In this document: piece after piece, positions 2,681-33,565 of the stretch
Layout: every line of letters begins with the position of its first letter
Numbering within the stretch: the stretch's first letter is position 1
Virus record (IMG/VR): IMGVR_UViG_2877251553_000003
Direction: 5' to 3' (one strand)
Source: a virus
Lineage: Duplodnaviria; Heunggongvirae; Uroviricota; Caudoviricetes
Length of the DNA: 33,823 nucleotides
Made by a program: the position numbers and the translations under genes
The notes under the pieces: generated by a model
Told to the model about the DNA's origin: nothing
Seen by the model: only the letters and a program-made list of their open reading frames with translations
Databases searched by the model: none

Positions 2681-4174
<1,494 letters not shown>

Positions 4175-4182
4175 CCACTTCA

Positions 4183-6278: not shown

Positions 6279-6349
6279 GTAAGCGTACAGCCTGAACCGT
6301 CTGGTCAGAATCTGACGAATTAGACAAAGTGGTGTCCACCAAATAAGTA

Positions 6350-7094: not shown

Positions 7095-7142
7095 GCCTCT
7101 TTATCCTGGTCGACGCTGAATGAGCCTGGTAATATACCCGGT

Positions 7143-8680: not shown

Positions 8681-8725
8681 CACATCCCCGTCAATACGGT
8701 TCTTGCTGCACGCTTACCATTGACG

Positions 8726-12142: not shown

Positions 12143-12143
12143 A

Positions 12144-13007: not shown

Positions 13008-13017
13008 TTTTTTGCAT

Positions 13018-13043
13018 CTTCAGCGTGTATCTGCACGCTGAAG
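13018..13043 (+). terminator. Perfect 10-bp inverted-repeat hairpin downstream of the HNH gene (possible terminator; weak T-tract)
   Basis: CTTCAGCGTG-tatctg-CACGCTGAAG. Confidence 0.4.
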
Positions 13044-13114
13044 AAATTCATAAAAACTGCTGCCTATTAATAAATTTTTTTAGCTGAGTTAAAGAACCTC
13101 ATTTAGTGATTACG

Positions 13115-14148
13115 TTAAGTAGCTAGTTTATAACTATCAAATTTAACAATGTTCTCACTTACCAATTTATTTATTTCCATCATTCTTTTTTGTAACGGTA
13201 TTAACTCGTTACGTACAAACACCAGGCTCGCCTTCTCCACATCCCCAAACCCCCGACATTATTAGGCATAATCCCCATCATTTGCGGTGGCACACGATGC
13301 GCCGCCATCATGTCATCCCGGCTCACGTTCTTGATGTTCAGAAACTCATCCTTCGCCGCGACTTCTGACAACGGGATGATCTGAAGCCCGTCCTTTTTGC
13401 CGTTAGGCGAGTACATAAACAGATTGCGGAAGTTACCTGGTCCTTTGGCGCTTTTCATCGCATTGCGGAGGTTGTTCACATCCTCCTGGTTTTGCGCGGC
13501 ATCGGTCATGTACATGATGAAGCCTGCATGACTGCCGTTAATGTAATACTATCGGCGGAACAGCGTGGCGGACTCGTTGAGCAGGGCTGACGGAATGGCA
13601 GAAAGGTAACCTGGCAGGCCGTAGATCTCTTGGTTGATGTCCGGTTCCATCAGATGAAAGATGCTTCCTTTCGTGAACTGATACGGCTGCGTGGTCATGC
13701 CGTATTGCACAAACCAGTAGGTATCCAGGTCTAATCCGCGTCGGGTGTATTTTGCCAGAGCAGGCTCAAGAGCGATGACCTATCCGAACCGGTTTGTGCG
13801 TTTCTCCAGGTAAGCGTTACCAAATACCAGATAATCCTGCACAAAACGTGAAAAAGCCTGCTGGCTGAGCAGCGGGTGAGGGATGTAGGTACTGATCAGA
13901 ATGTTGCATTTCACCGCAATTGGTGAACTGTGATGCACGGCGGCGCGGAAGGTGCGCGCCAGTCCGTCAAAACTCACTGGCGGCTCATACCAGCGATCTG
14001 TCTGTACGCATTCCACATAGTCCAGTAGTTCACGGCGGTCCAGAACCGGAACGGGATCGCCGAAGCTGAATGCTTCGGCTGAAGTCTGGTTTTTATGCTG
14101 GGTCTGTTTCGTCGCCGCAGCGCGGTTCTTCTTACTCTTTCCCATCAA
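13115..14148 (-). pseudogene. Q: P2 gpQ-type portal protein with two in-frame TAG codons and one C-terminal frame break
   Basis: MMGKSKKNRAAATKQ... N-terminus; TAG at 13780-13782 and 13549-13551 (as the reverse complement of cta) in the same frame as the flanking segments; a frame change near 13251-13260 extends the ORF to about 13115. Confidence 0.8.
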
Positions 14149-15910
14149 AAAATCTCCACAATATTGCTGGTATTGGCGGACTCGCCCTGCAGCGGTTCGT
14201 TAAACAGTGCGTGCATTGTTGCCCAGGCCAGATCGGCATGGCTGGCTTCTTCGCTGCGGCTGGCTTCATAGGTCGGGCGGTTGCCGCTGGCGGTGGTGGC
14301 GCGACGGATTGCCATGAATGACTGCGCAATGTCGGTGTGCCCGGCGTCAAACTCAAGACGGCGGTGGCTGATAATGTCGTAGGCCTTGAGTACCAGGGCG
14401 TTTTTAACGTTGGGGTTGTAGACAAACTCCCGGACGGCAGGAAAAAACGCTTTCACGTTCTCGTAAACCCGTGACCAACGCCGGTTGAGTCGATGCCGAT
14501 ATAGGTCACGTTGTACTGTTCAGTCAGTTTTTTGATGGCGTAAGCCTGGGCGCGAAAGTCCATTCCGCGCCACTGGTGACGCTCAAGAATGCGGAACTTA
14601 CCGCCTGGCACGGCTGGCGGTGCCACCACCACGCATCCGGCGCTGTCGCCGTTCTGCGTACCTTTTGCCGGGTCATAACCGATCCACACTTCGCGCCAGC
14701 CAAACGGGCGCAGGGCCAGTGCATGAAAGTCGGTCCAGACTTCCCAGCTGTCCACCATGCACGCCTGCAATTCGCTGAGCGGGAACACGGACGCGAGATC
14801 GTCCACGAACTCGCACATCAGCAGGTTCTGGTATTCGTCAGGGCTGTACTCCATGCGCAACTGGTCAAGGTCGAACAGGTTACAGGCGCCGCGCACCGCA
14901 TCTTCCACGGTGACTATCTGGCGGTATTGCCCGTCTGCGCACAGCAGGCCGGGGGCCAGATTGCTGTGGGACAGGTCGATGTCCACCTTGTCAGCTTTGT
15001 TGCGCCCACGGTTGAACAGCGCACCGGACCAGAACGGATAAGCACTGTGGGTCAGACTGGATGGTGTGGAAAAATAGGTCTGCCGCCATTTCTTGTGAAT
15101 AGCCATACCAGAAGCCACTTTGCGTAGCTCCTGAAATTTCGGTATCCAGAAATATTCATCCAGATACAGGTTACCGTGATAACTCTGGGCAGTGCGGGCA
15201 TTGGTGCCGAGGAAATACAGTGTGGCCCCGTTGGGAAGCACCATCGGATCGCCTTTCAGCTCCACCTCCACTTCTTTGGCAAAGTCGATGATGTACTGTT
15301 TGAAGACGTGGGCCTGTGCCTTACTGGCAGAAAGGAAAATCTGGTTACGTCCGGTAAGCAGGGCGTCAATCAGGGCTTCACGGGCAAAATAGAAGGTCGC
15401 GCCGATCTGGCGTGACTTCAGCAGGTTGCGGATGCGGTTGGTTTTTCCGGCTTCCCACCAGTGGCGCTGGTAGTTGAACATGGAGGAATGGAAATTTTTT
15501 TCCAGCTTCTCAATCTGGTCATCGGTGAAAACATTCTTTTCAGGCTGACGGCGTGGGCCTTTGTTGCGGTTGGCGACGTTAGGGTTTAAGTCGGCTTCGT
15601 TGCCGCCATTGTTAAACTTGCCGATCCGCGCGTGGCGCTCAGACTGGCGCGCCAGCAGGTCAATATCTTTGAAATCTTTCCCTTCTTTGTGCTCCTTCAT
15701 GATGAGCTGGCAGTAGCGTGCGGCGGTGGTGAGCTGCATCTGATCCAGAGGCCCATAGTCACCCCACTTGTCGCGTTTTTTCCAGCTGTAAACGGTTGCA
15801 ACTTTCTCGCCCAGCATTTCAGCAATGCGGGCTACGCGGTATCCCTGAAAGTACAGCAGCATGGCCTGCCGACGGGGATCGAGATCTGCGGGTGTCAGTG
15901 TGGTGTTCAT
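14145..15910 (-). CDS. P: P2 gpP-type terminase large subunit; single frame break near 14468-14470
   Basis: Track ORFs 14453-15910 and 14145-14456 join as ...IGIDSTGVGHG|VYENVKAFFPAVREF... if one G is restored. Confidence 0.85.
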
Positions 15911-15946
15911 GGCACAAACCTACAGCCTTGAATGAAGGCTTTCCCC

Positions 15947-15964
15947 GCCTGCGGTTTGTGTGGT
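15947..15964. promoter_or_regulatory. TGT-N12-ACA dyad (P2 late-activator/Ogr box) in the divergent P/O late promoter region
   Basis: TGTgtggttgtcggtACA about 90 bp upstream of the O start codon. Confidence 0.5.
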
Positions 15965-16052
15965 TGTCGGTACAAATACCGCGCATTGTTTCACTGCCCC
16001 TATCACCGCAACCATAAGGCTCCAGTAAGTTTTTTCTAACGGAGCACGGCTC

Positions 16053-16886
16053 ATGACAGTGAAAGCAAAGCGTTTTCGCATCGGGGTGGAAGGTGCCACC
16101 ACCGACGGACGCGAAATCCAGCGTGAATGGCTGGAACAGATGGCAGCCAGCTATAACCCGGCGGTGTATACCGCGCTGATTAACCTTGAGCACATCAAGT
16201 CTTATCTGCCGGACAGCACCTTTAACCGCTACGGCAAGGTGACGGCGCTGTTTGCTGAAGAAATCACGGAAGGTCCGCTGGCAGGCAAGATGGCGCTGTA
16301 TGCTGACGTTGAGCCAACGGAGTCCCTGGTGGAACTGGTGAAAAAAGGCCAGAAATTATTCACCTCTATGGAAGTCAGCCCGAAGTTCGCTGATACGGGC
16401 AAAGCCTACCTGGTCGGCCTGGCTGCCACTGATGACCCTGCCAGTCTGGGCACTGAAATGCTGACATTCAGCGCCAGTGCAGCCCATAACCCGCTGGCAA
16501 ACCGCAAGCAGAATCCCGCCAATCTCTTTACCGCCGCAGAGGAAACGGTGATCGAACTGGAAGAAGTCCAGGACGACAAACCGTCCCTGTTTGCCCGCGT
16601 CACGGCGCTGTTTACCAAAAAAGAGCAGTCCGATGACGCCCGGTTCTCTGATGTGCATAAGGCCGTGGAGCTGGTCGCCACTGAGCAGCAGAACCTGAGC
16701 GCACGCACCGAAAAATCCCTGTCTGAGCAGGAAGAACGCCTGTCTGAGCTGGAGACTGCCCTGCAGGCACAGCAAACCGCCTTTAACGAACTGGTGGACA
16801 AGCTGAGTCATGAAGACAGCCGCCAGGACTACCGCCAGCGTGCAACAGGCGGTAACGCCCCCGCTGACACTCTGACCAATTGCTGA
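16053..16886 (+). CDS. O: gpO capsid scaffolding protein
   Basis: 277-aa ORF in the P2 position after divergent P; acidic coiled-coil C-terminal half. Confidence 0.85.
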   Translation: MTVKAKRFRIGVEGATTDGREIQREWLEQMAASYNPAVYTALINLEHIKSYLPDSTFNRYGKVTALFAEEITEGPLAGKMALYADVEPTESLVELVKKGQKLFTSMEVSPKFADTGKAYLVGLAATDDPASLGTEMLTFSASAAHNPLANRKQNPANLFTAAEETVIELEEVQDDKPSLFARVTALFTKKEQSDDARFSDVHKAVELVATEQQNLSARTEKSLSEQEERLSELETALQAQQTAFNELVDKLSHEDSRQDYRQRATGGNAPADTLTNC

Positions 16887-16902
16887 TGGAGCACAAAACC
16901 TG

Positions 16903-17961
16903 ATGAAGAAGAATACCCGCTTTGCTTTTAACGCTTACCTGCAGCAACTGGCGCGTCTGAACGGTGTGGCAGTTGAAGAACTGTCCAGCAAGTTCACCGT
17001 AGAGCCGTCCGTGCAGCAGACGCTGGAAGACCAGATCCAGCAGTCCGCCGCTTTCCTGACTCTGATTAACGTCACGCCAGTGACTGAGCAGTCCGGTCAG
17101 CTGCTGGGGTTGGGAGTTGGCAGCACCATTGCCGGAACCACTGATACCACTGCGAAAGAGCGTGAACCTGTCGATCCGACGCTGATGGTCGATGTGGAAT
17201 ATAAATGCGAGCAGACCAACTTTGACACGGTGCTGACCTACGCGAAGCTGGACCTGTGGGCGAAGTTTCAGGATTTTCAGGTGCGTATCCGTGACGCCAT
17301 CGTGAAACGTCAGGCACTGGACCGCATCATGATCGGCTTTAATGGCGTGAAGCGTGCGAAAACCTCCAACCGTAGCGAAAACCCGCTGCTGCAGGATGTG
17401 AATAAAGGCTGGCTGCAGAAAATCCGTGAGGATGCACCGGATCACGTCATGGGCAGCACCACCACGGGCGGTGAAACCACACCGGGCGCAGTGAAAGTCG
17501 GGAAAGGTGGCGAATATGCCAACCTGGACGCCGTGGTGATGGATGCCGTCAATGAGCTTATCGACGTGGTCTACCAGGACGATGACGATCTGGTGGTGAT
17601 TTGCGGTCGTGAACTGCTGTCTGACAAGTATTTCCCGCTGGTCAACAAAGAGCAGGAAAACAGTGAAAAACTGGCTGCCGATATGATCATCAGTCAGAAA
17701 CGCATGGGTGGCCTGCAGGCCGTGCGTGCGCCGTTCTTCCCGCCGAATGCGCTGCTGATCACCCGTCTGGATAACCTGTCCATCTACTGGCAGGAAGACA
17801 CCCGCCGCCGTTCAGTTATCGACAACCCGAAACGTGACCGGATTGAAAACTTTGAATCCGTTAACGAAGCCTATGTGGTTGAGGACTACCGCTGCGCCGC
17901 ACTGGTGGAAAACATCCAGATTAGTGATTTCAGCGCCGCCGCAGCCGAAACCGGAGCGTAA
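16903..17961 (+). CDS. N: gpN major capsid protein
   Basis: 352-aa ORF with extensive similarity to P2 gpN as recalled (RFAFNAYL, FNGVKRA, VGKGGEYANLDA). Confidence 0.9.
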   Translation: MKKNTRFAFNAYLQQLARLNGVAVEELSSKFTVEPSVQQTLEDQIQQSAAFLTLINVTPVTEQSGQLLGLGVGSTIAGTTDTTAKEREPVDPTLMVDVEYKCEQTNFDTVLTYAKLDLWAKFQDFQVRIRDAIVKRQALDRIMIGFNGVKRAKTSNRSENPLLQDVNKGWLQKIREDAPDHVMGSTTTGGETTPGAVKVGKGGEYANLDAVVMDAVNELIDVVYQDDDDLVVICGRELLSDKYFPLVNKEQENSEKLAADMIISQKRMGGLQAVRAPFFPPNALLITRLDNLSIYWQEDTRRRSVIDNPKRDRIENFESVNEAYVVEDYRCAALVENIQISDFSAAAAETGA

Positions 17962-17964
17962 TCC

Positions 17965-18615
17965 ATGAGCCTGAGTCCCGCACGGCAGCATCGCCTGCGC
18001 GTTCAGGCTGAACAGGCCGCCCGTGAGGGTGGCAGTGTTCGCCACGCATCGGGCTATGACCTGATGCTGCTGCAACTGGCGGAAGACCGCCGCCGTCTCA
18101 AGGGCGTTCAGTCCACGGTCAAAAAAGCGGAAATCAAAGTGGAGCTGCTGCCGAAGTACGCCGCCTGGGCGGAGGGTGTCCTGGCTGCCGGAGGCGCTCA
18201 ACAGGATGACGTGCTGATGTACGTGATGTTGTGGCGCATTGATGCCGGAGATTATGCCGGGGCGCTGGAGATCTGGCGTCATGCCCTGCGTCATGGATGG
18301 GTGATGCCGCTGGGCAACCGCAACGTGCAGACCGTGCTGACAGAGGAAATGGCAGATGCAGCGCAGAGCGCAATGCTTGCCGCCACCGGCTTTGATGCCG
18401 ATCTGTTGCTGCAGACGCTGGAGCTGACAGACGGTCTGGATATGCCGGACCAGTCACGGGCACGTCTGCATAAAGCGATTGGCGCGGTCCTGAGTGAAAG
18501 CAATCCGGCTTCCGCCCTTAATCATCTCAACCATGCGTTACAGCTCGATCCCCGCTGTGGCGTGAAAAAAGACAAACAGCAGCTGGAGCGCAGACTGCGC
18601 AATGACAGCCGCTGA
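17965..18615 (+). CDS. M: gpM terminase small subunit
   Basis: 216-aa ORF similar to P2 gpM (QDDVLMYVMLWRID, LELTDGLDMPD). Confidence 0.8.
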   Translation: MSLSPARQHRLRVQAEQAAREGGSVRHASGYDLMLLQLAEDRRRLKGVQSTVKKAEIKVELLPKYAAWAEGVLAAGGAQQDDVLMYVMLWRIDAGDYAGALEIWRHALRHGWVMPLGNRNVQTVLTEEMADAAQSAMLAATGFDADLLLQTLELTDGLDMPDQSRARLHKAIGAVLSESNPASALNHLNHALQLDPRCGVKKDKQQLERRLRNDSR

Positions 18616-18710
18616 CAGAACGTGCCCCCGCGCACGGGCGGCACGGGGTGGCGAAAGGCACAGCCACATCAAAACCCCGTCCACCGCCCTTTATTTCAGG
18701 AGAAAGCAGC

Positions 18711-19157
18711 ATGAAGTTTGTTGCGCCAGAACAGGCACCGGAACAGGCGGAAATCATTAGAAATACGCCGTTCTGGCCTGATGTGGACCTGTCGGAGTTT
18801 CGCAGTGTCATGCGCACTGACGGCACGGTGACGCAGCCGCGTTTAAAGTAGGTTGCACTGTCGGCAATTTCGGAGGTTAACGCAGAGCTGTATGAATTTC
18901 GCAGACGCCAGCAGATGCTGGGGTATGCGTCGGAACAGCTGGACGGGAAAAGTGAGCGCATTCAGCACTATTTCAACGCGGTTTACTGCTGGGCTCGCGC
19001 CATGCTCAACGAACGTTTCCAGGACTATGACGCCACGGCATCCGGTGCGAAGCGGGGCGAAGAACTGGCGGAAGCAAGCGGTGATTTGTGGCGTGACGCC
19101 CGCTGGGCCATCAGCCGGGTGCAGGACGCGCCGCACTGCACAGTGGAGCTTATCTGA
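18711..19157 (+). pseudogene. L: gpL head completion protein with an in-frame TAG at 18849-18851
   Basis: MKFVAPEQ... and ...NAELYEFRRRQ...CTVELI lie in the same frame either side of the TAG; RBS GGAGAAAG before the ATG. Confidence 0.75.
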
Positions 19158-19360
19158 TGAAAGTGCGTGCGCATCAGTATGACACGGTGGACGCGCTTTG
19201 CTGGCGTCATTACGGGCGCACGCAGGGTGTCACGGAGCAGGTACTGAAGGCAAATCCGGGGCTTGCCGAATACGGCCCCTTTGTACCTCACGGGCTGCAG
19301 GTGGAGCTGCCGGACATTCCGACCACCACCACCGTGCAGACCGTCCAGCTATGGGACTGA
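19157..19360 (+). CDS. X: gpX tail protein X
   Basis: 67-aa ORF similar to P2 gpX (DTVDALCWRHYGRT, ANPGLAE). Confidence 0.8.
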   Translation: MKVRAHQYDTVDALCWRHYGRTQGVTEQVLKANPGLAEYGPFVPHGLQVELPDIPTTTTVQTVQLWD

Positions 19361-19363
19361 ATT

Positions 19364-19579
19364 ATGACGCTTGAGCGAATCAGCGCCTTTATCACGTATT
19401 GCATCGCCGTCGTGCTGGCCTGGCTGGGCGATTTGTCCATCAAGGATGCCTCAACGCTGGGCGGCCTGATGATTGGTGTGCTGATGCTGGCTATCAACTG
19501 GTACTACAAACACAAAGCCTACCAGCTTCTGCGCGACGGGCAGATCTCGCGGGAGGACTATGAATCCATCAATCGTTAA
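19364..19579 (+). CDS. Holin (small two-TM membrane protein)
   Basis: 71 aa, two hydrophobic segments, charged C-terminus, directly before the endolysin. Confidence 0.55.
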   Translation: MTLERISAFITYCIAVVLAWLGDLSIKDASTLGGLMIGVLMLAINWYYKHKAYQLLRDGQISREDYESINR

Positions 19580-20072
19580 ACGCTGCCTTGTCGGGGCCGT
19601 GCTGGCTATTGCTGCCACGCTGCCGGGTTTTCAGCAGCTTCACACCTCCGTGGAGGGACTGAAACTGATTGCCGATTACGAAGGTTGTCGTCTGCAGCCG
19701 TATCAGTGCAGCGCGGGTGTCTGGACCGACGGTATTGGTAATACGTCGGGCGTCATTCCCGGCAAAACCATTACGGAGCGACAGGCAGCAGAAGGGCTGA
19801 TCTCCAACGTGCTGCGTGTGGAGCGGGCGCTTGAAAGGTGTGTGAAGCAACAGCCGCCGCAGAAGGTGTATGACGCTGCGGTGTCGTTTGCCTTCAACGT
19901 GGGTACGGGCAATGCCTGCAGTTCCACGCTGGTGAAATTGCTCAATCAGCGGCGCTGGGCGGATGCGTGCCGACAGTTGCCGCGCTGGGTTTATGTGAAA
20001 GGTGTTTTTAATCAGGGGCTGGATAACCGCCGTGCGCGGGAGATGGCCTGGTGTTTACAGGGAGCAAACTGA
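19560..20072 (+). CDS. Endolysin (lysozyme-type, with N-terminal signal-anchor)
   Basis: N-terminal hydrophobic segment then EGLKLIADYEGCRLQPYQCSAGVWTDGIGNT (lysozyme catalytic region pattern). Confidence 0.8.
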   Translation: MNPSIVKRCLVGAVLAIAATLPGFQQLHTSVEGLKLIADYEGCRLQPYQCSAGVWTDGIGNTSGVIPGKTITERQAAEGLISNVLRVERALERCVKQQPPQKVYDAAVSFAFNVGTGNACSSTLVKLLNQRRWADACRQLPRWVYVKGVFNQGLDNRRAREMAWCLQGAN

Positions 20073-20073
20073 A

Positions 20074-20451
20074 ATGAAAAAGAAATTAATCAGCGGGCTG
20101 TTTCTGATGTTATGGATGGCGCTGTTAATCGCAGCAATAGTGTATCCGCAGGGGATTTTTCCGGTACTGGCAGCGTCCGGCGTTTGGGTAGCCTGTTTAC
20201 TGACATGGGCGGTAATTCCGGTAGCACTGGCTTCGTTAATTAAGAATGGCCCGCTCTGGCAGGAGTTGAGGGCATCTTTACTGAAGACAATTACCCGAAA
20301 AGAAAACGTATTTATCAGCTGGGTGATACGATTGCTGATTGTCGTCAGTCTCGCCTGGACGGGGTGGGCCATTACCCTGGTCTTTTATCTGCTGACCGTT
20401 ATTGCCTTCTGGATCACCCGTAATCAGATGGCGCAACAGGTAGCCGCATGA
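20074..20451 (+). CDS. lysA: LysA-like membrane protein
   Basis: About 125 aa with four hydrophobic segments in the P2 lysA position. Confidence 0.6.
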   Translation: MKKKLISGLFLMLWMALLIAAIVYPQGIFPVLAASGVWVACLLTWAVIPVALASLIKNGPLWQELRASLLKTITRKENVFISWVIRLLIVVSLAWTGWAITLVFYLLTVIAFWITRNQMAQQVAA

Positions 20452-20876
20452 ACCGGTTGCTGCTGGTTGTGCTGGCGTTATTATTGGCGGCGCTGGGCTG
20501 GCAGACGTGGCGGCTGGCTGATGCCAGCCAGACCATCAGCACGCAGGCAGACGAGCTGCAGAGCAAAAGCCAGGCACTGGCAAAGAGCAACAGCCAGCTT
20601 ATCAGCCTGTCCATTCTGACTGAAACCAATAACCGGGAGCAGGCGCGGCTCTATGCCGAAGCAGAACAGACCAGTGTACTGCTGAGACAACGACAACGCC
20701 GGATTGAGGAACTGAAACGTGAGAACGAGGATTTACGTCGCTGGGCTGATACTCCTTTGCCTGCTGACATTATCCGGCTGCGGGAACGTCCGGCACTCAC
20801 CGGAGGTGCAGCTTACCGTCAGTGGTTGTCCGCGAGTGACGCCGTGTCGGCTGGAGCAGGCAGCGCCGCGCACTAA
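20448..20876 (+). CDS. lysB: LysB (Rz-like i-spanin)
   Basis: N-terminal TM then coiled-coil; overlaps lysC. Confidence 0.7.
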   Translation: MNRLLLVVLALLLAALGWQTWRLADASQTISTQADELQSKSQALAKSNSQLISLSILTETNNREQARLYAEAEQTSVLLRQRQRRIEELKRENEDLRRWADTPLPADIIRLRERPALTGGAAYRQWLSASDAVSAGAGSAAH

Positions 20877-21009
20877 CGGTGATCTGAATGCGTTGCTGGA
20901 TGAAACGGAGGCCGCCTGGGCGGTCTGTGCAGACAAAGTGGACATGATTATTGCGTGTCAGGAGCGAAATAGTGAACAAACCACAATCCCTGCGCCACGC
21001 CCTCAATAA
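20719..21009 (+). CDS. lysC: LysC (Rz1-like o-spanin lipoprotein)
   Basis: Lipobox LTLSGC, Pro-rich, begins inside lysB in another frame. Confidence 0.7.
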   Translation: MRTRIYVAGLILLCLLTLSGCGNVRHSPEVQLTVSGCPRVTPCRLEQAAPRTNGDLNALLDETEAAWAVCADKVDMIIACQERNSEQTTIPAPRPQ

Positions 21010-21403
21010 AGCAGTGCCTTATGTCCGTAATAACCCGGACAAACTGCATCTGTTTGTGGATAACGGTTCGCTGGTTGCCTCCGGGGCTAGCTCCATGTCA
21101 TGGGAGTACCGCTACACCCTGAACGTGGTGATTGAAGATTTCAGCGGCGACCAGAATCTGCTGATGGCCCCGGTTTTGCTGTGGCTGCGGGATAACCAGC
21201 CCGATGCGATCAATAACCCGGCGTTACGGGAAAAGCTATTCACCTTTGAGGTGGATATTCTGCGCAACGATGTCTGTGATATCAGCCTTAACCTGCAACT
21301 GACGGAGCGTGTGCTGGTCAGCACTGACGGCAGTGTGTCGAACGTTGAAGCGGTAGCGGAACCTGATGAACCTGAAGAAATGTGGACGGTGAAACGTGGC
21401 TGA
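20972..21403 (+). CDS. R: gpR tail completion protein
   Basis: Similarity to P2 gpR (FVDNGS, RYTLNVV, WLRDNQPD); GTG start at 20972 preferred over TTG at 20951. Confidence 0.75.
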   Translation: MNKPQSLRHALNKAVPYVRNNPDKLHLFVDNGSLVASGASSMSWEYRYTLNVVIEDFSGDQNLLMAPVLLWLRDNQPDAINNPALREKLFTFEVDILRNDVCDISLNLQLTERVLVSTDGSVSNVEAVAEPDEPEEMWTVKRG

Positions 21404-21792
21404 ATTGCAGAAGGTGGACGACTGGCTGAGTGCATTATTGGCGAATCTGGAGCCAGCCGCAAGAAGCCGCATGATGCGCCAGCTGGCGCAGGAACTGCGC
21501 CGGACACAGCAGCAGAATATCAGGATGCAGCGCAATCCAGATGGCAGCAGTTATGAGCCGCGCAGGGTAACAGCACGCAGCAAAAAGGGGCGCATCAAAC
21601 GTCAGATGTTTACAAAGCTGCGCACCACAAAATACCTGAAAACTGCAGCCAGCGCCGATTCTGCCAGCGTACAGTTTGAAGGTAGGGTGCAGCGCATTGC
21701 CCGTATTCACCATTACGGCTTGAGTGATCGCGTCAGTCGAAAAGGTATTTATACCATCTATGCGAAAAGGCAGTTATTAGGTTTTAATGTCC
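21396..21792 (+). pseudogene. S: gpS tail completion protein, 3'-truncated by IS1 copy 2
   Basis: PAARSRMMRQLA...QQQNIRMQRNPDGS matches P2 gpS; the ORF stop is created inside the IS1 end. Confidence 0.75.
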
Positions 21793-21847
21793 GGTAATGC
21801 TGCCAACTTACTGATTTAGTGTATGATGGTGATTTTAAGGTGCTTGC

Positions 21848-22123
21848 GTGGCTTCCATTTCCATCAGATGTCCTTCCTGCTCCGCTATTGAAGGCGTGGT
21901 GCGTAACGGCAAAAGAACTGCCGGACATCAGCGCTATCTCTGCTCTCATTGCCGTAAAACATGGCAACTACAGTTCACTTACACCGCCTCTCAGCCCGGT
22001 ACGCACCAGAAAATCATTGATATGGCCATGAATGGCGTCGGATGTCGCGCCAGTGCACGCATTATGGGCGTTGGCCTCAACACGGTTTTACGTCACTTAA
22101 AAAACTCAGGCCGCAGTCGGTAA
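21848..22123 (+). CDS. insA: IS1 InsA
   Basis: 91 aa, 8 substitutions relative to the copy-1 InsA. Confidence 0.9.
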
Positions 22124-22167
22124 CCTCGCGCATACAACCGGGCAGTGATGTGATTGTCTGCGCTGAA

Positions 22168-22545
22168 ATGGACGAACAGTGGGGCTACGTCGGTGCTAAA
22201 TCACGTCAGCGCTGGCTGTTTTACGCGTATGACAGGATACGGAGGACGGTTGTGGCGCACGTCTTCGGTGAACGCACTCTGGCCACACTGGAGCGTCTTC
22301 TGAGCCTGCTGTCGGCCTTTGAGGTCGTGGTATGGATGACGGATGGCTGGCCGCTGTATGAATCACGCCTGAAGGGAAAGCTGCACGTTATCAGCAAGCG
22401 TTACACTCAGCGCATTGAGCGACATAATCTGAATCTGAGACAACATCTGGCAAGGCTGGGACGGAAGTCACTGTCGTTCTCAAAATCGGTGGAGCTGCAT
22501 GACAAGGTCATCGGGCATTATCTGAACATAAAACACTATCAGTAA
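22168..22545 (+). CDS. insB: IS1 InsB
   Basis: [16 protein letters not shown]... in the same position within the element as in copy 1. Confidence 0.85.
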
Positions 22546-22560
22546 GTTGGCAGCATTACC

Positions 22561-23038
22561 ATGCAGCCCTCACAATATAGTTAAAAGCGACATTTCGTGG
22601 GCGTGTTTCATTCGCACCTGCAGGTTTAGTCGTTGCCGCAACAACACCACCCTCTGTAATAGCCGGGTTGGGAATTGGGTAATTATCGAAGTCAATGGCC
22701 GGAGACAGGGGCGTGATTTGTTTTAAAATCGTGGTGCCTGTAAAACTTTCCAGAGTCTGGTCGTTAGTTCGTGAAGTCCAGATTCCCCAATAGTGGTTAT
22801 GACTGACAATCGCACCGTCCTGAAGCGTTAATAATCCCCTTCCGTTATCCACTCCACGTCCGTCATCCCAGCCACGAATAAACTCACCGCGTAAATCAGG
22901 CAATTTATTTGTCGGGTAAGCCTTTGCCAGTTCCGGGTATTCTTCAGCAGAAAAAGCCGCACCATTGCATTTCAGCCAGCCTGTCGGCGGAGTGGCTGAA
23001 GGCCACGGAACAGGCACACCAACAGGTAATGCAGAGCC
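22561..23038 (-). pseudogene. Tail-fibre C-terminal variable domain (alternative, inverted copy) with no attached constant region
   Basis: PWPSATPPTGWLKCNGAAFSAEEYPELAKAYP...ETRPRNVAFNYIVRAA is the conserved tail-fibre C-terminal pattern (P2 H / Mu S type); begins at the crossover site and abuts IS1. Confidence 0.65.
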
Positions 23039-23064
23039 TTCTCCCAAACCAACGTTTAAGAAAA
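23039..23064. other. Gin/Hin/Cin/Pin-type 26-bp recombination crossover site
   Basis: TTCTCCCAAACC-AA-CGTTTAAGAAAA fits the half-site pattern (TTnTCnnAAACC / GGTTTnnGAnAA) next to the invertase gene. Confidence 0.5.
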
Positions 23065-23119
23065 TGCAGAGATAATGGCTAACTGGCATCATCCCCGGTT
23101 TTTATTCAGGGGATTGATC

Positions 23120-23685
23120 ATGCTTATTGGCTATGTACGCGTGTCAACAAATGACCAGAACACCGATTTGCAACGTAATGCACTGAACTGCGCGGGATGT
23201 GAGCGGATTTTTGAGGATAAAATCAGTGGCACTAAGCCCGACAGACCGGGGCTTAAAAAACTGCTCAGGACACTATCGGCAGGAGACACGCTGGTTGTCT
23301 GGAAGCTGGACAGACTGGGACGCAGTATGCGGCATCTTGTTACGCTGATAGAAGAGTTGCGCCAGCGTGGTGTGAATTTCCGAAGCCTGACTGACAGTAT
23401 TGATACCAGTACCCCAATGGGCCGTTTCTTTTTTCACGTCATGGGGCTCTGGCTGAAATGGAACGTGAACTGATAGTTGAACGTACCAGAGCAGGGCTGG
23501 CTGCAGCTCGTGCCAAAGGCAGAGTAGGTGGACTCCGTCCTAAGTTGACCACCGAACAGTGGGCACAGATTGGACGTTTACTCGAGGCCGGAGAATCAAG
23601 ACAGCGTATTGCACTGATTTTTGATGTGGGCGTTTCTACCATTTATAGAAAATTTCCGGCGAATGAGAGCAATGAATCGCCCTGA
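23120..23685 (+). CDS. pin: Pin/Gin/Hin-family serine DNA invertase; frame break in a G-run near 23444-23447
   Basis: MLIGYVRVSTNDQNTDLQRNAL...VVWKLDRLGRS...FFFHVMG|ALAEMERELIVERT... nearly identical in pattern to E. coli Pin as recalled. Confidence 0.85.
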
Positions 23686-23733
23686 GTCAGTATTATTTTG
23701 ATTTTTCCTGTAAGCGGACAAATACCGTCATTT

Positions 23734-23751
23734 TGTGTGAATAACGACACA
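23734..23751. promoter_or_regulatory. TGT-N12-ACA late promoter box upstream of FI
   Basis: TGTgtgaataacgacACA about 80 bp upstream of the FI ATG. Confidence 0.5.
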
Positions 23752-23827
23752 ACTGCGCTTAGCTGTTTGTCAGGCACAATCACTTCAACATAGGGCGAAG
23801 CCTAATCCAATCAGGAGGTTCGCCACT

Positions 23828-25000
23828 ATGGCTCAGGATTACCACCACGGGGTGCGCGTTGTTGAAGTCAACGAAGGCACCCGATCCATTACCACGGTGA
23901 GCACCGCCATCGTGGGTATGGTCTGCACGGGCGATGATGCCGATGCAAAAATGTTTCCTCTTAATAAACCTGTGCTGATCACTGATGTGCTGACCGCCAG
24001 CGGTAAAGCGGGTGAGTCTGGCACGCTGGCCCGTTCGCTGGATGCCATCGCTGACCAGGCAAAACCCGTGACCGTTGTTGTGCGTGTGCCGCAGGGTGAA
24101 ACGGAAGAAGAAACCACAACCAATATCATTGGCGCAGTGACCGCCGAGGGTAAAAAAACAGGTATGAAAGCCCTGTTATCTGCCCAGTCACAGCTCGGCG
24201 TTAAACCGCGCATTCTCGGCGTGCCAGGTCACGACACGAAGGCGGTAGCTACTGAGTTGCTGAGCGTGGCGCAAAGCCTGCGTGGATTTGCTTACCTGTC
24301 AGCGTATGGTTGCAAGACGGTGCAGGAAGCAATCACTTACCGTGAAAACTTCAGTCAGCGTGAAGGAATGCTGATCTGGCCCGACTTTACTGGCTGGGAC
24401 ACGGTGCTGAATGCCGAAGCAACGGCTTATGCCACCGCCCGTGCGCTCGGTCTGCGCGCTAAAATTGATGAGCAGACCGGATGGCACAAAAGCCTGTCCA
24501 ACGTGGGCGTGAACGGTGTCACCGGAATTTCTGCTGATGTGTTCTGGGATCTGCAGAACCCGGCAACCGATGCAGGTCTGCTTAACCAGAACGATATCAC
24601 CACGCTTATCCGCAAAGACGGTTTCCGCTTCTGGGGTTCCCGCTGTCTGAGCGATGATCCGCTCTTTGCCTTCGAAAACTACACCCGCACGGCGCAGGTG
24701 CTGATGGACACGATGGCAGAAGCGCACATGTGGGCGGTGGACAAACCGCTGAACCCGTCGCTGGCCCGCGACATTATCGAAGGTATCCGCGCCAAAATGC
24801 GTAGCCTGGTCAGTCAGGGCTATCTCATTGGTGGTGATTGCTGGCTGGACGAGTCGGTGAACGATAAAGACACGCTGAAAGCCGGGAAACTCACCATCGA
24901 TTACGACTACACGCCAGTGCCGCCACTTGAAAACCTGATGCTGCGTCAGCGCATCACCGATCAGTACCTGGTGAATTTCTCCAGCCAGGTCAGCGCGTAA
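23828..25000 (+). CDS. FI: gpFI tail sheath protein
   Basis: 390-aa ORF, P2 FI-like; RBS AGGAGG. Confidence 0.9.
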
Positions 25001-25009
25001 GGGGACAAC

Positions 25010-25524
25010 ATGGCTTTACCACGCAAATTAAAACACCTGAACCTGTTTAACGACGGGAACAACTGGCAGGGGATCGTTGAGTCGCTGACGCTGCCGAAAT
25101 TCACCCGCAAATATGAGAAGTATCGCGGCGGCGGTATGCCCGGAGCGGTGGATGTGGATCTGGGACTGGATGACAGTGCACTGGATACAGAATTTTCCAT
25201 TGGTGGTACTGAACTGCTGCTGTTTAAGCAGATGGGCAAAGCCACGGTGGATGGCATCCAGCTGCGCTTTACCGGCTCTATTCAGCGTGATGATACCGGG
25301 AAGTGCAGGCCGTGGAGCTTGTGGTGCGTGGACGTCACAAAGAAGTAGATTCCGGCGAGTGGAAGACGGGCGAAAGCAACACTACCAAAGTGACCAGTAC
25401 CAACAGCTACGCGAAGCTGACCATCAATGGTGAGGTGCTCTATGAAGTGGACCTGATCAACATGGTGGAAATTGTGGACGGTGTGGACCTGATGGAAGCG
25501 CACCGCAACGCCCTCGGCCTCTGA
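25010..25524 (+). CDS. FII: gpFII tail tube protein; frame break near 25298-25300
   Basis: Track ORFs 25010-25348 and 25303-25524 join as ...QRDDTGEVQAVELVVRGRHKEV... with one added G. Confidence 0.85.
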
Positions 25525-25578
25525 TGTATCTGAACGGCGCGGAATGCCGCGCCAGAACCTAATTTACAGGACAACAAA

Positions 25579-25880
25579 ATGAGCGATAAGCAGACTGAAA
25601 AGACCATTCAACTGGATACTCCCATCATGCGCGGTAAAACAGAAATTACCGAAATTGTGTTGCGTAAACCGCAGTCCGGTGCGCTGCGCGGCACACGCCT
25701 GCAGGCCATTATGGATATGGATGTGAACGCGATGATGACCGTGATCCCCGCATCTCCAGTCCGGCACTGACTGCACAGGAAATTGCAGAGATGGACCCGG
25801 CAGATCTCACTGCCATGTCGGTTGAGGTTGTCACTTTTTTGTTGAAGAAGTCGGTGCTTGCCGGTTTACCGACAGCCTGA
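25579..25880 (+). CDS. E: gpE tail assembly chaperone; frame break in a C-run near 25746-25749
   Basis: MSDKQTEKTIQLDTPIMRGK...; with one added C the ORF continues to the TGA at 25878-25880. Confidence 0.7.
25845..25851 (+). other. TTTTTTG slippery heptamer for the programmed -1 frameshift producing E+E' (E' would end at 26014)
   Basis: T6G near the 3' end of E; the -1 frame is open to the TGA at 26012-26014, overlapping the start of T, as described for P2 E/E'. Confidence 0.5.
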
Positions 25881-26006
25881 CGGTTGACGATCTGGTGGCT
25901 GATATCGCCACCATCTTTCACTGGCCGCCATCCGTTACTGACGTTATGCCGCTGACCGAAGTGCTGGAATGGCGGGATAAAGCGATTCAGAGAAGCGGGG
26001 CCAGCC

Positions 26007-29000
26007 ATGAGTGACAATAACCTGCGTCTGCAGGTGATTCTTAATGCGGTTGACAAACTCACCCGCCCATTTCGATCCGCGCAGGCCAGTTCAAGAGAAC
26101 TGGCTGCTGCTGTCAAAAAATCCCGCGATGCAATAAAGCAGCTTGATCAGGCCGGGAGCAGTCTGGACAGCTTCCGAAAGCTGCAGGCAGAAAATCAGAA
26201 ATTAGGCGACAGGCTGAACTATGCCCGCCAGCGTGCAAATTTGCTCAGTCAGGAACTGGGAGCGATGGGGCCGCCTTCGCAACGTCAGGTTGTTGCTCTG
26301 GGCCGTCAACGGCTGGCTGTTCAGCGCCTGGAAGAACGCCAGAAAAAGCTGCAGCAGCAGACGGCGCTTGTGCGTGCAGAACTTTATCGTGCTGGTATTT
26401 CAGCTAATGATGGCGCCAGTGCGACGGCCCGCATTACCCGTGAAACGATGCGTTATAACAGGCAGCTTTCTGAGCAGGAAGCGAGGTTACGACGTGTCGG
26501 GGAGCAACAGCGAAAAATGCACGCCGCCCGGGGGCTTACGCCAGGCGTCTTGAGGTAAGGGATCGTATTGCAGGTGCCGGAGCCACCACCACGGCTGCAG
26601 GGCTGGCAATGGGCGCACCAGTGATGGCGGCAGTAAAAAGCTATACCAGCATGGAAGATGCCATGAAAGGTGTGGCAAAGCAGGTCAATGGTCTGCGTGA
26701 CGATAATGGCAACCGCACTGCGCGTTTTTACGAAATGCAGGGTGCCATCAAGGCTGCCAGCGAACAGTTGCCGATGGAAAACGGTGCTGTGGACTTCGCC
26801 GCACTGGTTGAAGGTGGTGCGCGCATGAACGTCGCAAACCCTGACGACAGCTGGGAAGACCAGAAACGTGACCTGCTGGCCTTCGCCAGCACGGCGGCAA
26901 AGGCGGCAACAGCCTTTGAACTGCCAGCGGATGAACTGTCAGAAAGTCTGGGGAAAATCGCCCAGCTCTACAAAATCCCTACCCGCAATATTGAGCAGCT
27001 CGGTGATGCGCTGAACTATCTGGATGATAACGCCATGTCGAAAGGGGCGGACATCATTGATGTCATGCAACGCCTGGGCGGTGTGGCTGACCGTCTGGAT
27101 TATCGTAAAGCGGCGGCGCTGGGTTCCACCTTCCTGACACTCGGCGCTGCGCCTGAGGTTGCAGCCAGTGCAGCAAACGCGATGGTGCGTGAATTGTCCA
27201 TTGCCACCATGCAAAGCAAGAGTTTCTTTGAAGGGATGAATCTGCTGAAACTCAATCCAGAAGTGATTGAAAAGCAGATGACGAAGGATGCGATGGGAAC
27301 TATCCAGCGGGTGCTGGAGAAGGTGAATGCGCTGCCACAGGATAAGCGCCTGTCTGCCATGACCATGTTGTTTGGTAAAGAGTTTGGCGATGACGCAGCG
27401 AAACTGGCAAACAACCTGCCGGAACTTCAGCGCCAGTTAAAACTGACTGCGGGCAATGATGCGCTCGGTTCCATGCAGAAAGAATCCGACATCAACAAGG
27501 ATTCACTTTCTGCTCAGTGGTTGCTGGTCAAAACCGGAGCACAGAACACCTTCAGCAGCCTGGGGGAAACGCTGCGCCAGCCGCTGATGGATATTCTGTA
27601 CACGGTGAAAAGCGTCACGGGGGCGTTGCGTCGCTGGGTGGAAGCTAACCCGGAACTGACGGGCACTCTGATGAAAGTAGCCGCTGTGGTAGCTGCCGTT
27701 ACCGTGGGCCTCGGCACCTTAGAGGTGGCGCTGGCTGCAGTGCTGGGGCCGCTGGCAGTCATCCGTCTGGGATTCTCTGTGCTGGGTATCAAAACGTTAC
27801 CTTCCGTTACGGCAGCAGTAACCCGAACCAGCAACGCGTTGTCCTGGCTGGCTGGCGCACCACTGGCACTGCTGCGACGCGGGCTTGCTTCATCGGGCAA
27901 CGCTGCAGGTTTACTTACTGCGCCGTTGTCGTCTTTGCGCCGCACGGCATCACTGACGGGAAATGTCCTGAAAACTGTAGCAGGTGCGCCGGTTGCACTT
28001 TTGCGGGTCTGGATTATCCGGTTTACGTGCGGTTGCTGTGATGTTTATGAATCCACTGGCGGTACTACGCGGCGGACTGGCTGCCACAGGCACGGTGCTG
28101 CGTATGCTCGCATCCGGTCCACTGGCGATGCTGCGCGTTGCCCTGTATGCCGTCTCTGGTCTGTTAGGTGCTCTGCTCAGTCTGATAGGTCTTGTGGTTA
28201 CTGCACTGGCGGGTGTGGCGCTGGTTGTCTGGAAATACTGGCAGCCCATCACCACATTTCTCGGTGGCGTGGTGGAAGGATTCAAAGCGGCGGCAGGTCC
28301 TGTCAGTGCCGCGTTCGAACCGCTTAAGCCTGTGTTCCAGTGGATTGGCGACAAAGTACAGGCGCTGTGGGGCTGGTTTACTGATCTGCTGACGCCCGTT
28401 AAGTCGACCTCTGCCGAACTGCAGAGTGCAGCGGCAATGGGGCGACGATTCGGGAGGCTCTGGCGGAAGGGCTGAATATGGTCATGCATCCGCTGGACTC
28501 CCTGAAATCCGGCGTTTCCTGGTTGCTGGAGAAACTTGGCATTGTCAGTAAAGAGGCCGCAAAGGCGAAACTGCCGGAAAGCGTGACGCGTCAGCAACCT
28601 GCGACGGTGAATGCAGACGGTAAAGTGATGATGCCATCGGGTGGTTTTCCGTCATGGGGATATGGCTTTGCGGGGATGTATGACAGCGGCGGGTATATCC
28701 CGCGCGGGCAGTTTGGCATCGTCGGTGAAAACGGGCCGGAAATTGTTAACGGCCCGGCAAATGTGACCAGCCGGAGAAATACAGCTGCACTGGCTGCCGT
28801 TGTTGCCGGAATGATGGGTGTTGCTGCTACGCCAGCAGAGCTTCCACCGTTGCACCCTTTGGCACTTCCCGCGAAAGGCGGTGAAGCGATGGTGAGTCGT
28901 GCAGCCACTGTGCCGCCCGTTCAACGGATTGAGGCACCGATGCAGATCATCATTCAAACGCAGCCAGGACAAAGTGCGCAGGATATTGCGCGGGAGGTGG

Positions 29001-29082
29001 CCCGCCAGCTTGATGAACGTGAACGCAGGCTGAAGGCAAAAGCCAGGAGTAACTACAGCGATCAGGGGGATACGACGCATGA
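26007..29082 (+). CDS. T: gpT tail tape measure protein; at least four frame breaks
   Basis: Four consecutive track ORFs (26007-26558, 26609-28327, 27984-28475, 28478-29329) carry one continuous Ala/Gly/Leu-rich tape-measure sequence; breaks at G-runs near 26530, 28439 and 29065 and one unlocated break between 27984 and 28327. Confidence 0.8.
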
Positions 29083-29564
29083 TGATGGTGCTGGGATTGT
29101 ACGTGTTTATGCTGCGCACCGTGCCGTATCAGGAGCTGCAGTATCAACGCAGCTGGCGACATGCGGCAAACAGCCGGGTAAACCGACGCCCGTCAACGCA
29201 GTTTCTGGGACCGGACAACGACATGCTGACGCTTTCTGGTGTTCTTATGCCGGAGGTAACGGGCGGCAGGCTGTCGTTGCTGGCTCTGGAGCAGATGGCA
29301 GAACAGGGAAAAGCATGGCCCCTGATTGAAGGCAGCGGCACGATTTACGGCATGTATGTGATTGAGGGACTGAATCAGACTAAAACGGAGTTTTTCCGCG
29401 ACGGTATGCCGCGCCGGATTGAGTTCACCCTGTCGCTAAAACGCGTGGATGAATCCCTGTCCGATATGTTCGGTGATCTCAGTGCGCAACTGAATAATCT
29501 GCAGGGAACGGCAACATCTGCCTTAAGCGATATCAGTAAAACGGTGGGAGGGCTGCTGTCGTGA
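29079..29564 (+). CDS. U: gpU tail protein
   Basis: 161-aa ORF similar to P2 gpU (WPLIEGSGTIYGMYVI, FTLSLKRVDESL). Confidence 0.85.
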   Translation: MMMVLGLYVFMLRTVPYQELQYQRSWRHAANSRVNRRPSTQFLGPDNDMLTLSGVLMPEVTGGRLSLLALEQMAEQGKAWPLIEGSGTIYGMYVIEGLNQTKTEFFRDGMPRRIEFTLSLKRVDESLSDMFGDLSAQLNNLQGTATSALSDISKTVGGLLS

Positions 29565-30660
29565 ATTTCAGCTCTGAACTGCTTAACAAAGGCAACAAAA
29601 CTCCGGCATTCAGCATCAGTATTGAAGGCAGGGATATCACCACTGTGCTGGACAACCGCCTGATGGGGCTGACGCTGACGGATAACCGGGGCTTTGAGGC
29701 GGACCAGCTTGATCTGGAGCTGGACGACGCCGATGGAAAAATCGTGCTGCCGCGCCGTGGGGCTGTCATTACGCTGGCGCTGGGCTGGAAGGGACAGCCG
29801 CTTTTCCCGAAAGGGGCATTCACGGTGGACGAGATTGAACACACTGGCGCACCGGATCGCCTGACTATCCGGGCGCGAAGTGCTGATTTTCGTGAAACGC
29901 TGAATACCCGCCGTGAAAAGTCGTGGCACAAGACCACCGTTGGGGAAGTGGTGAAGGAAATAGCTGCGCGGCACAAACTGAAGATGGCATTGGGTGAAGA
30001 CTTGTCGGATAAACTCGTGGAGCATATAGACCAGACTAATGAGAGTGACGGCAGTTTTTTGATGCGGCTGGCGCGCCAGTACGGTGCTATTGCGTCGGTG
30101 AAAAATGGCAATCTGTTATTCATCCGGCAGGGCAGGGTAAAAGCGCCAGCGGTAAACCACTACCGGTGATCACTATCACACGCAAGGACGGCGACAGTCA
30201 CCGCTTTACCCTGGCAGATCGCGGAGCTTACACGGGCGTCATTGCCAGCTGGTTGCATACCCGCGAACCCGCGAAGAAAGAAAGCACCACTGTGAAGCGT
30301 AAGCGCAGGACTAAGAAGCAGAAGAAAGAGCCGGAAGCGAAGCAGGGCGATTACCTGGTGGGTACGGATGAAAACGTGCTGGTACTTAATCGCACTTATG
30401 CCAACCGGAGCAACGCCGAACGGGCAGCGAAAATGCAGTGGGAACGCCTGCAACGCGGCGTTGCATCATTCTCGCTACAACTGGCGGAAGGGCGGGCAGA
30501 TCTCTACACAGAAATGCCTGTGAAGGTCAGTGGCTTTAAACAGCCGATAGATGATGCGGAATGGACCATTACGACTCTGACGCATACTGTCAGCCCGGAT
30601 AACGGTTTTACGACCAGTCTGGAGCTTGAAGTGAGGATTGATGATTTCGAAATGGAATGA
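29561..30660 (+). CDS. D: gpD tail protein; frame break near 30130
   Basis: Track ORFs 29561-30169 and 30166-30660 join with one added base in cagggcagggt. Confidence 0.85.
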
Positions 30661-30750
30661 TTCTTCGCAATGGAGAACTTTTAAGTTTGCAAAATGGAAT
30701 AATGCGGTATCATTATTGTGAATTTAGCAAAAATGGGGAGAACTCGAAAA

Positions 30751-30969
30751 ATGATGATTTGCCCACTGTGTGGAAGTGCCGCCCATACTCGCAGCAGTTT
30801 TCAGGTATCTTCATTGACCAAAGAGCGTTACAACCAGTGCCAGAACATTAACTGCAGCCATACTTTTGTTACCCATGAAACTTTTGTTCGTTCGATTGCA
30901 ACGCCAAAAGAGTCAAATCCGGTTCAGCCGCATCCAATGAAATCAGGACAGGTGGCGCTCTCTCTTTGA
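30751..30969 (+). CDS. ogr: Ogr zinc-finger late-gene transcription activator
   Basis: MMICPLCGSAAHTRSS...KERYNQCQNINCSHTF...RPHP matches the P2 Ogr Cys pattern; RBS GGGGAG. Confidence 0.85.
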   Translation: MMICPLCGSAAHTRSSFQVSSLTKERYNQCQNINCSHTFVTHETFVRSIATPKESNPVQPHPMKSGQVALSL

Positions 30970-31048
30970 CGCTGCCGCCATTTTGTCGCCATCGTTAAAA
31001 AACAGTGCTTCTAACATCATGATTTTAAAAGGCATAAATTTCAGACAA

Positions 31049-31092
31049 CAAAAAACCCATCAACCTTGAACCGAAATGGCGGGGTTGATGGG
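31049..31092 (-). terminator. Rho-independent terminator on the minus strand downstream of ybjL
   Basis: Minus-strand stem CCCATCAACC...GGTTGATGGG followed by TTTTTTGTTG. Confidence 0.5.
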
Positions 31093-31204
31093 CTCCACAA
31101 AATGGGGACATCAAAGAAAAGCAGTGGCACTAATTAAGACTGATGCCCTGCGGAAAAGTTCTGCGGTTGTGCAAAAAAATTTCATTTTCAGGGCAACTTC
31201 AGTT

Positions 31205-32890: not shown

Positions 32891-33159
32891 GGAGGCTAAC
32901 TTCTTGTTTACTAGTAAGCTGTTGAAAGAAATGGTAATTTACGATAATGTTTTTTACCAGAATTCAGGGCGCAGATTCATTCAGCGCACCTAAACGATAG
33001 TAAAGTAACAATGTATTTTACTAGTGTAATCACATTAGGTATCAACGGCTATATGAATTGCGTTGGCCTATATTAGCATGGAATGCGAAGCGGCTTTATC
33101 TTACTGAACGCCACACTGGCGAAAAATGTGTTCGATAGACGCAGTGTCAGGAGGAACGA

Positions 33160-33536: not shown

Positions 33537-33557
33537 AGCCCTCAACGCGAGGGCTTG
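33535..33557. terminator. Hairpin between convergent ybjM and grxA (probable bidirectional terminator)
   Basis: AAAGCCCTC-aacgc-GAGGGCTTG. Confidence 0.5.
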
Positions 33558-33565
33558 TCAGACGA

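Follow-up and report, generated by a model that had tools for sequence, protein, structure and literature searches.

The window (the whole stretch of 33,823 nucleotides analysed here) raises the question of how a single IS1 element came to stand where a P2-like prophage would carry its baseplate and tail-fibre genes, and of why the tail-fibre sequence that remains beside it lies on the opposite strand. The initial annotation had invoked an IS1-associated deletion and/or inversion. To separate these two possibilities, we examined the element, the sequences on either side of it, and the same locus in intact and rearranged relatives.

The window is best explained, from its gene content and order, as a resident defective P2/186-like (Peduoviridae) prophage next to ybjL in a Shigella chromosome. 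Genes for an integrase and a CI repressor lie at the left end of the prophage, and the late genes have the P2/186-like order (Q and P, then O N M L X Y K lysA lysB R S, and after the gap FI FII E E' T U D ogr) and match the corresponding Pfam families. The first late gene past the gap is the tail sheath gene FI (23828-25000, plus strand; tblastn match over residues 1-390 at 98.7% identity), after which the genes from the tail tube gene through D and ogr are collinear up to 30966, with the chromosomal ybjL next. The window is 100% identical to CP026825.1; its assignment to Shigella is based on the database names of the exact junction proteins described below and on the papers that name CP049285 and CP162080. 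For comparison we used chiefly the prophage of E. coli ATCC 8739 (locus L002) and the closest intact relative, the prophage locus of E. coli CP049845.1 (L029). The latter was retrieved by an exact-sequence look-up of the window's R protein, which returned the same prophage in several states, intact in CP049845.1.

The IS1 element, its flanks and the missing genes

The element in question, IS1 copy 2, occupies exactly 768 bp on the plus strand (21793-22560) and has perfect 23-bp inverted ends, GGTAATGCTGCCAACTTACTGAT at 21793-21815 and its reverse complement at 22538-22560; the chance expectation for end matches of this length is 0. The reading frames of insA (21848-22123) and insB' (22042-22545) are both intact and are joined at an A6C frameshift site (AAAAAAC, 22099-22105). 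In a sibling assembly with an identical IS1 (L013), a 232-aa InsAB' protein is called, and it has the InsA zinc ribbon, HTH_Tnp_IS1 and DDE_Tnp_IS1 domains (PF03811, PF12759 and PF03400). Copy 2 thus has the attributes of the IS1 family: a length of about 768 bp, inverted repeats of about 23 bp, insA and insB' joined by A6C, and all three domains.

A 9-bp target-site duplication is the mark of a simple IS1 insertion event, not of the element itself. No such duplication is found at copy 2, as the 9 bp to its left (TTAATGTCC) and the 9 bp to its right (ATGCAGCCC) are unrelated. The position of the element and the lack of a duplication had both been recorded in the initial annotation, and we confirm them. 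The window holds its own positive control for a simple insertion: IS1 copy 1 (2306-3073, plus strand), an IS1A-like element nested in IS911, is flanked by the 9-bp duplication CACGGTGGC. Recombination between the two IS1 copies of the window was considered and rejected, since copy 1 keeps its duplication intact and differs from copy 2 at 73 positions (9.5% divergence).

To the left of copy 2 lies the tail-completion gene S (21396-21792, plus strand), in which codons 1-132 and one nucleotide more are left of 147, the length of S in relatives with the same S allele. The open reading frame enters IS1 by 5 nt and stops at 21797, to give a protein of 133 aa that matches Pfam Phage_tail_S (E 3.4e-36, profile positions 2-132 of 148); residues 1-130 of the ATCC 8739 S protein are matched by tblastn, and the gene is collinear with intact S until position 11233 of one comparison locus (L023) and position 10821 of L029. 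The left flank had been described as the middle of S, but the break is at codon 133 of 147, near the 3' end, and about 90% of the gene is retained.

To the right of copy 2 lies a silent alternative C-terminal tail-fibre cassette on the minus strand (22561-23092), which encodes a Collar domain (Pfam Collar, E 9e-16). The flank opens on the first base of the TAA stop codon of this cassette. Its open reading frame therefore enters IS1, where the end of the element adds one Trp codon and a stop, and ends at 22556 (178 aa). The cassette is covered over residues 1-177 in a tblastn comparison with ATCC 8739, with 97.7% identity. Indeed, the right flank matches ATCC 8739 from L002 14001 onward, and the TAA of a minus-strand ORF of 177 codons, with the annotation phage tail protein, begins with that base, which sits one base beyond the start codon of a minus-strand tail-fibre assembly gene, which is missing in the window. 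The flank had been taken for the extreme 3' end of a tail-fibre variable domain on the opposite strand; the strand and the start at the stop codon are as described, but the cassette is complete, with all 177 codons.

The genes that would lie between these flanks are missing. The translated products of all genes annotated in the ATCC 8739 prophage were compared with the window by tblastn. Every gene from P through S is present, as is every gene from the silent cassette through ogr; no match anywhere in the window was obtained for the cargo ATPase, V, W, J, I, H, G/tfa or tfa'. Similarly, the 5,967 bp that are missing relative to L029 have no blastn or tblastx match in the window. A synteny comparison with intact P2-like prophages agrees with these searches, in that the flanks are collinear with ATCC 8739 and L029 and the block between them is missing (ATCC 8739 6068-7323 aligns to window 20490-21745, and 14001-25270 aligns to 22561-33823). 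Thus, the central claim of the initial annotation, that V, W, J, I, H and G are absent with IS1 in their place, holds within the window, and the search for homologues elsewhere in this prophage, by which the claim was to be judged, yielded no match within the window. This baseplate and tail-fibre module is expected of a complete functional phage; without V, W, J, I, H and a chaperone, no baseplate or fibre could presumably be assembled.

The invertible tail-fibre segment

The orientation of the cassette is accounted for by the layout of intact prophages. In the comparators ATCC 8739, SHP24, G5, MINF_1D and L029, the plus strand carries H and one chaperone gene, and the minus strand carries another chaperone gene together with a further C-terminal cassette; the invertase gene comes next, again on the plus strand, so that a minus-strand cassette adjoining the invertase gene is the native arrangement. 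An imperfect inverted repeat of 25-27 bp is found in the comparators inside H, at the boundary of its constant and variable parts, and again just upstream of the invertase gene. A host-range switch of this Gin/Cin/Pin type is well known, also from P2-like E. coli prophages (PMC4272514).

The window retains the invertase gene and one of the two sites. The gene (23120-23685, plus strand; Pfam Resolvase, E 1.5e-40) encodes a Gin/Cin/Pin-type serine DNA invertase with Resolvase and HTH_7 domains, and its relation to Gin is apparent from the 188-aa protein of the siblings, which matches Mu Gin (PDB 3UJ3) over residues 1-184 with an E value of 2.5e-91. In this assembly the gene is frameshifted: one G is missing from a run of G at about 23443-23446, and the tblastn match is split into residues 1-109 and 99-188. 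The gene is intact (188 aa) in each of the seven sibling assemblies compared, and the frameshift is probably a sequencing error specific to this assembly. The remaining crossover site is a 26-bp sequence at 23039-23064 (TTCTCCCAAACCAACGTTTAAGAAAA), which we identified from the repeat pairs of the comparators and from the overlap of two L029 alignments, which share 17 bp at window 23039-23055, exactly inside the site. Its inverted partner inside H is deleted. While both sites are found in the comparators, the window is left with one site and one cassette and does not constitute an invertible switch with two inverted 26-bp sites; the inversion switch would therefore be frozen, with one orphan site.

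The cassette of the window is the C-terminus of the expressed H of intact L029, reversed (L029 15439-15933 aligns to window 23055-22561 with 99.6% identity). This piece of 495 bp is the only one that is inverted between the two prophages, and it ends exactly at the crossover site. The cassette lies on the opposite strand because it is part of the invertible tail-fibre segment of the phage, and, judged from these alignments, its strand is due to the Gin-type invertase switch of the phage and not to IS1.

If instead an IS1-mediated inversion or translocation had moved the V-to-G block elsewhere in the chromosome, the opposite-strand fibre fragment would be explained as a by-product of that event. 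Such a rearrangement would fit the minus strand of the cassette relative to S and FI, and our search for the V-to-G block covered only the window. However, both flanks are in the orientation of intact prophages, the end of the 495-bp piece at the crossover site is the signature of site-specific inversion, and the minus-strand cassette is native in all five comparators. Moreover, an inversion by IS1 would leave two inverted copies of the element, while the only other IS1 of the window lies in direct orientation, with a duplication of its own and 9.5% divergence from copy 2. We consider an inversion or translocation by IS1 very improbable. Of the two events that had been proposed, the deletion is borne out, with 5,967 bp lost and IS1 at the joint, and the inversion by IS1 is not, as both flanks are collinear with intact prophages.

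Reconstruction of the locus and the route of the deletion

Outside the segment discussed above, the window follows L029 closely: L029 1-10821 aligns to window 10993-21792 with 99.5% identity and L029 from 17284 onward aligns to the window from 23039 onward with 99.8% identity. We constructed the expected product in silico by flipping L029 between the crossover sites, removing the 5,967 bp (10822-15438 and 15934-17283) and inserting the IS1 of the window. The product aligned to the window in a single alignment of 15,233 bp with 34 mismatches and 8 gap openings (99.5% identity). Thus, one programmed flip and one deletion with IS1 at the joint explain the locus completely. The joint has what defines an IS-associated deletion, namely one IS, flanks collinear with an undeleted reference and a missing interval between them, and we are nearly certain that a deletion associated with IS1 took place. 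IS1 prefers AT-rich targets, and the two endpoints in the window fit this preference, as they are AT-rich (GC within 30 bp on either side of 0.30 and 0.33, compared to 0.51 overall).

The ancestral order would have been S, cargo gene, V, W, J, I, H and tfa, followed by tfa', the silent cassette, the invertase gene and FI. First, the Gin-type invertase would have flipped the invertible segment, leaving the Collar-type cassette silent on the minus strand and adjoining the invertase gene. Second, an IS1-associated deletion of 5,967 bp, from codon 133 of S to the first base of the stop codon of the cassette, would have removed the cargo gene and V, W, J and I. It would also have taken the constant part of H, in which the left crossover site lies, together with the other cassette and the two chaperone genes. 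We infer that the flip came before the deletion because the deletion took the left crossover site. The joint would be left with one IS1 and no target duplication, and the excised circle, without an origin, would be lost.

Missing target duplications are generally attributed either to adjacent deletion or to recombination between two IS copies (PMC11708052). We favor, with moderate confidence, an adjacent deletion, in which an IS1 already present at one endpoint transposed replicatively within the same molecule. The other route would begin with two IS1 insertions in direct orientation, one at codon 133 of S and one at the boundary between the tfa start and the cassette stop, and end with RecA-dependent recombination between them to yield one hybrid IS1. 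The missing duplication is equally expected on this route (PMC11708052), both endpoints are AT-rich as are primary IS1 target sites, and a Shigella chromosome holds hundreds of IS copies, mostly IS1 (PMC7373316). A hybrid might also be reflected in the right inverted repeat of copy 2, which has three clustered differences (positions 759-761) from the IS1 of a sister lineage, while the rest of the element is nearly identical; this is suggestive of a hybrid but not decisive. The differences of copy 2 from copy 1 and from IS1A are spread evenly, and a test of copy 2 for mosaic structure against other IS1 variants was not informative. On the other hand, recombination between two insertions needs three events compared to two, and neither single insertion was found among the contigs listed or in 5,426 complete E. 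coli genomes. More precisely, an IS1 with a duplication at either endpoint was found neither among the 24-25 longest contigs listed per look-up nor in those genomes, so that, with no intermediate for the lineage of the window, adjacent deletion and two-IS1 recombination fit alike there. The sister lineage described next has an intermediate with only one IS1, at which the deletion exactly begins. Taken together, we regard recombination between two IS1 insertions as the less probable of the two routes.

In this sister lineage, the junction of a deletion coincides with that of a pre-existing simple insertion. The simple insertion state is found in CP026766.1 (L031), in which an IS1 at 10892-11659 has the 9-bp duplication CAATTGAGT and the tail module is intact. 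This IS1 differs from copy 2 at 5 nucleotides and lies 70 bp further right, just past the stop codon of S. The deleted state is found in CP162080.1 (L025) and CP049285.1 (L027), which have the IS1 of CP026766.1, likewise at 10892-11659, with the same left junction, and in which the right flank jumps to L029 16437. The 5,545 bp that these two genomes have lost to the right of IS1 extend over the cargo gene and V, W, J, I and H, and over the greater part of one chaperone gene. CP049285 is S. boydii 602068 (PMC7545283), and CP162080 is a S. flexneri serotype 6 isolate, 703427 (PMC11708030). At the level of sequence, CP026766.1 on the one hand and CP049285 and CP162080 on the other represent precisely the states expected before and after an adjacent deletion by IS1. 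The two deletions, of 5,967 bp and 5,545 bp, would then show that the tail module of the ybjL prophage was lost twice, independently.

Both deleted lineages keep the lysis genes, the sheath, tube and tape-measure genes, the invertase, and a cargo pair resembling a candidate defence system (PDC-M01, described below). It seems unlikely that the double loss reflects selection for disarming the tail module, rather than just a hot spot for IS1 in the AT-rich cargo region past S. Several unrelated E. coli genomes (matches H3-H7, for instance L003 11525-12292) also have an IS1 in the AT-rich cargo region that separates S from V, no further than about 1 kb downstream of S; this suggests that the region is a recurrent IS1 target in P2-like prophages. 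Two E. coli matches, H2 (strain G5) and H3 (strain 64), had seemed to share a junction with the window and turned out to be unrelated IS1 insertions at other positions.

The two junctions of the window are themselves widespread. Apart from the window, at least nine assemblies read through the IS1 and have the same junctions (CP026805, CP026807, CP026823, CP026828, CP026840, CP026842, PSSQ01000001, UYIT01000009 and the draft contig AKNG01000051), and in the seven of these nine for which the flanks were compared, the flanking 15-mers are identical to those of the window and the IS1 has 0-2 differences. The truncated S protein of 133 aa is found, in exactly this form, on 267 contigs, under the database names 'Shigella dysenteriae' and 'MULTISPECIES Shigella', and the exact 178-aa protein of the cassette plus Trp has the database name 'MULTISPECIES Shigella'. 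Junction-specific searches found neither junction in the 5,426 complete E. coli genomes, and the left junction had no exact match among the GTDB species-representative genomes.

This distribution bears on the possibility that two real IS1 copies were collapsed in assembly and the DNA between them dropped. The assembly of the window is indeed error-prone, with at least eight one-base indels in G/C runs that are absent from all seven sibling assemblies compared. Nevertheless, the identical junctions in the nine other assemblies, which are independent and span the IS1, argue that the joint is not an assembly artefact, and the short-read contigs L010, L012, L021 and L022 end inside IS1 at both junctions, as contigs would at a real repeat. 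An artefact is thus extremely improbable. We give equally little credence to the idea that illegitimate recombination or some other process made the deletion and that IS1 landed at the joint later by chance: we found no specific point in its favor, a later insertion would leave a 9-bp duplication, as at copy 1 and in CP026766.1, but copy 2 has none, and the same joint without IS1 was not seen among the related contigs listed.

Known systems and further damage to the prophage

Deletions associated with IS1 are classical, textbook events. The window shares with the IS1 adjacent deletions and IS-mediated genome reduction of Shigella a single IS1 at the joint, the lack of a duplication, a deletion that starts from the end of the IS and AT-rich endpoints, and there is no mechanistic difference between them. 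Shigella chromosomes contain 229-348 IS copies, of which IS1 is the most abundant, and have undergone large-scale genome reduction (PMC7373316). The window also resembles the E. coli P2/186-like prophages with an invertible fibre segment (ATCC 8739 at ybjL; EPEC E2348/69) in gene order and Pfam families (PMC4272514), as well as in integration at ybjL, a Gin-like invertase and 26-bp crossover sites. It differs from them in that it is without the baseplate, the fibre, both chaperones and one site, and in that its replication and head genes are disrupted. The cryptic remnants with a Pin-type invertase (e14 with PinE, Qin with PinQ and Rac with PinR) are likewise dead and have an invertase beside remnants of fibre cassettes (PMC4272514, PMC12529663). 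However, these remnants keep both crossover sites and still invert, whereas the window has a single site and no invertible segment.

All components of the locus (IS1, a P2/186-like prophage and a Gin-type switch) are thus well known, and their combination here is ordinary prophage decay; the literature searched contained no mention of this locus or of the two independent deletions at it. Of mild interest is that the same module was lost more than once, independently, and that public genomes preserve every state. Since the intact, simple-insertion and deleted states are all public, the locus is a clean and fully reconstructable case of IS1-driven prophage decay in Shigella, and the two deletion junctions could serve as lineage markers. 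The value of the analysis is mainly for annotation: we recommend that the locus be described as a defective P2/186-like prophage whose tail module was lost in an IS1-associated deletion, and the minus-strand cassette as the frozen half of an invertase switch and not as evidence of an inversion by IS1.

The prophage would be dead for further reasons, namely that gpA is split, dam is incomplete, and both the portal gene and L are disrupted. The replication gene A is interrupted by an IS66-family element of about 2.4 kb (~6279-8717), with TnpB_IS66 and an IS66 DDE transposase in two ORFs and an 8-bp duplication (CATTGACG). The dam methylase gene (4217-4822) is without its N-terminal third and matches only positions 87-253 of the Pfam profile. 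It is abutted by the right end of the IS911 (IS3-family) copy (~2151-4183) that hosts IS1 copy 1, and this junction implies another IS-associated loss in the early region. The portal gene Q (13129-14146) is called in two pieces (of 133 or ~104 aa, and of 198 aa). Nearly all of the Shigella copies retrieved, those of the sister lineage among them, have the portal gene split, and it is intact (343 aa) in E. coli CP049845.1. Gene L (18711-19154) is called in two pieces of 46 and 80 aa in window-type copies only, with an 18-bp deletion relative to ATCC 8739.

A second class of defects consists of the one-base losses mentioned above. One G/C is missing from short runs at 11682, 14468, 23443, 25298, 25746, 28452, 29065 and 30130, and is present at each of these in the seven siblings. 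The eight indels break the genes for an AAA ATPase, P, the invertase, FII, E, T and D, and are most likely homopolymer sequencing errors, not real pseudogenes. A further one-base loss in a G/C run, relative to ATCC 8739, is found at 33474 in ybjM. The sibling assembly CP026842.1 (L018) has many errors of its own.

The cargo pair noted above lies between DinI/Tum and the portal gene (10494-13007) and matches the PADLOC candidate defence system PDC-M01 (E 1e-34 and 1.2e-33). Its A component is an AAA_15/AAA_21 ATPase, 549 aa long in the siblings and frameshifted in the window, and the B component, its partner, has 293 aa. Every retrieved copy of the prophage has conserved the pair. In the scaffold gene O, the window and the other siblings encode 277 aa, while two assemblies, L014 and L018, have a 21-bp in-frame indel at 16718 (CCTGTCTGAGCAGGAAGAACG) and encode 284 and 280 aa.
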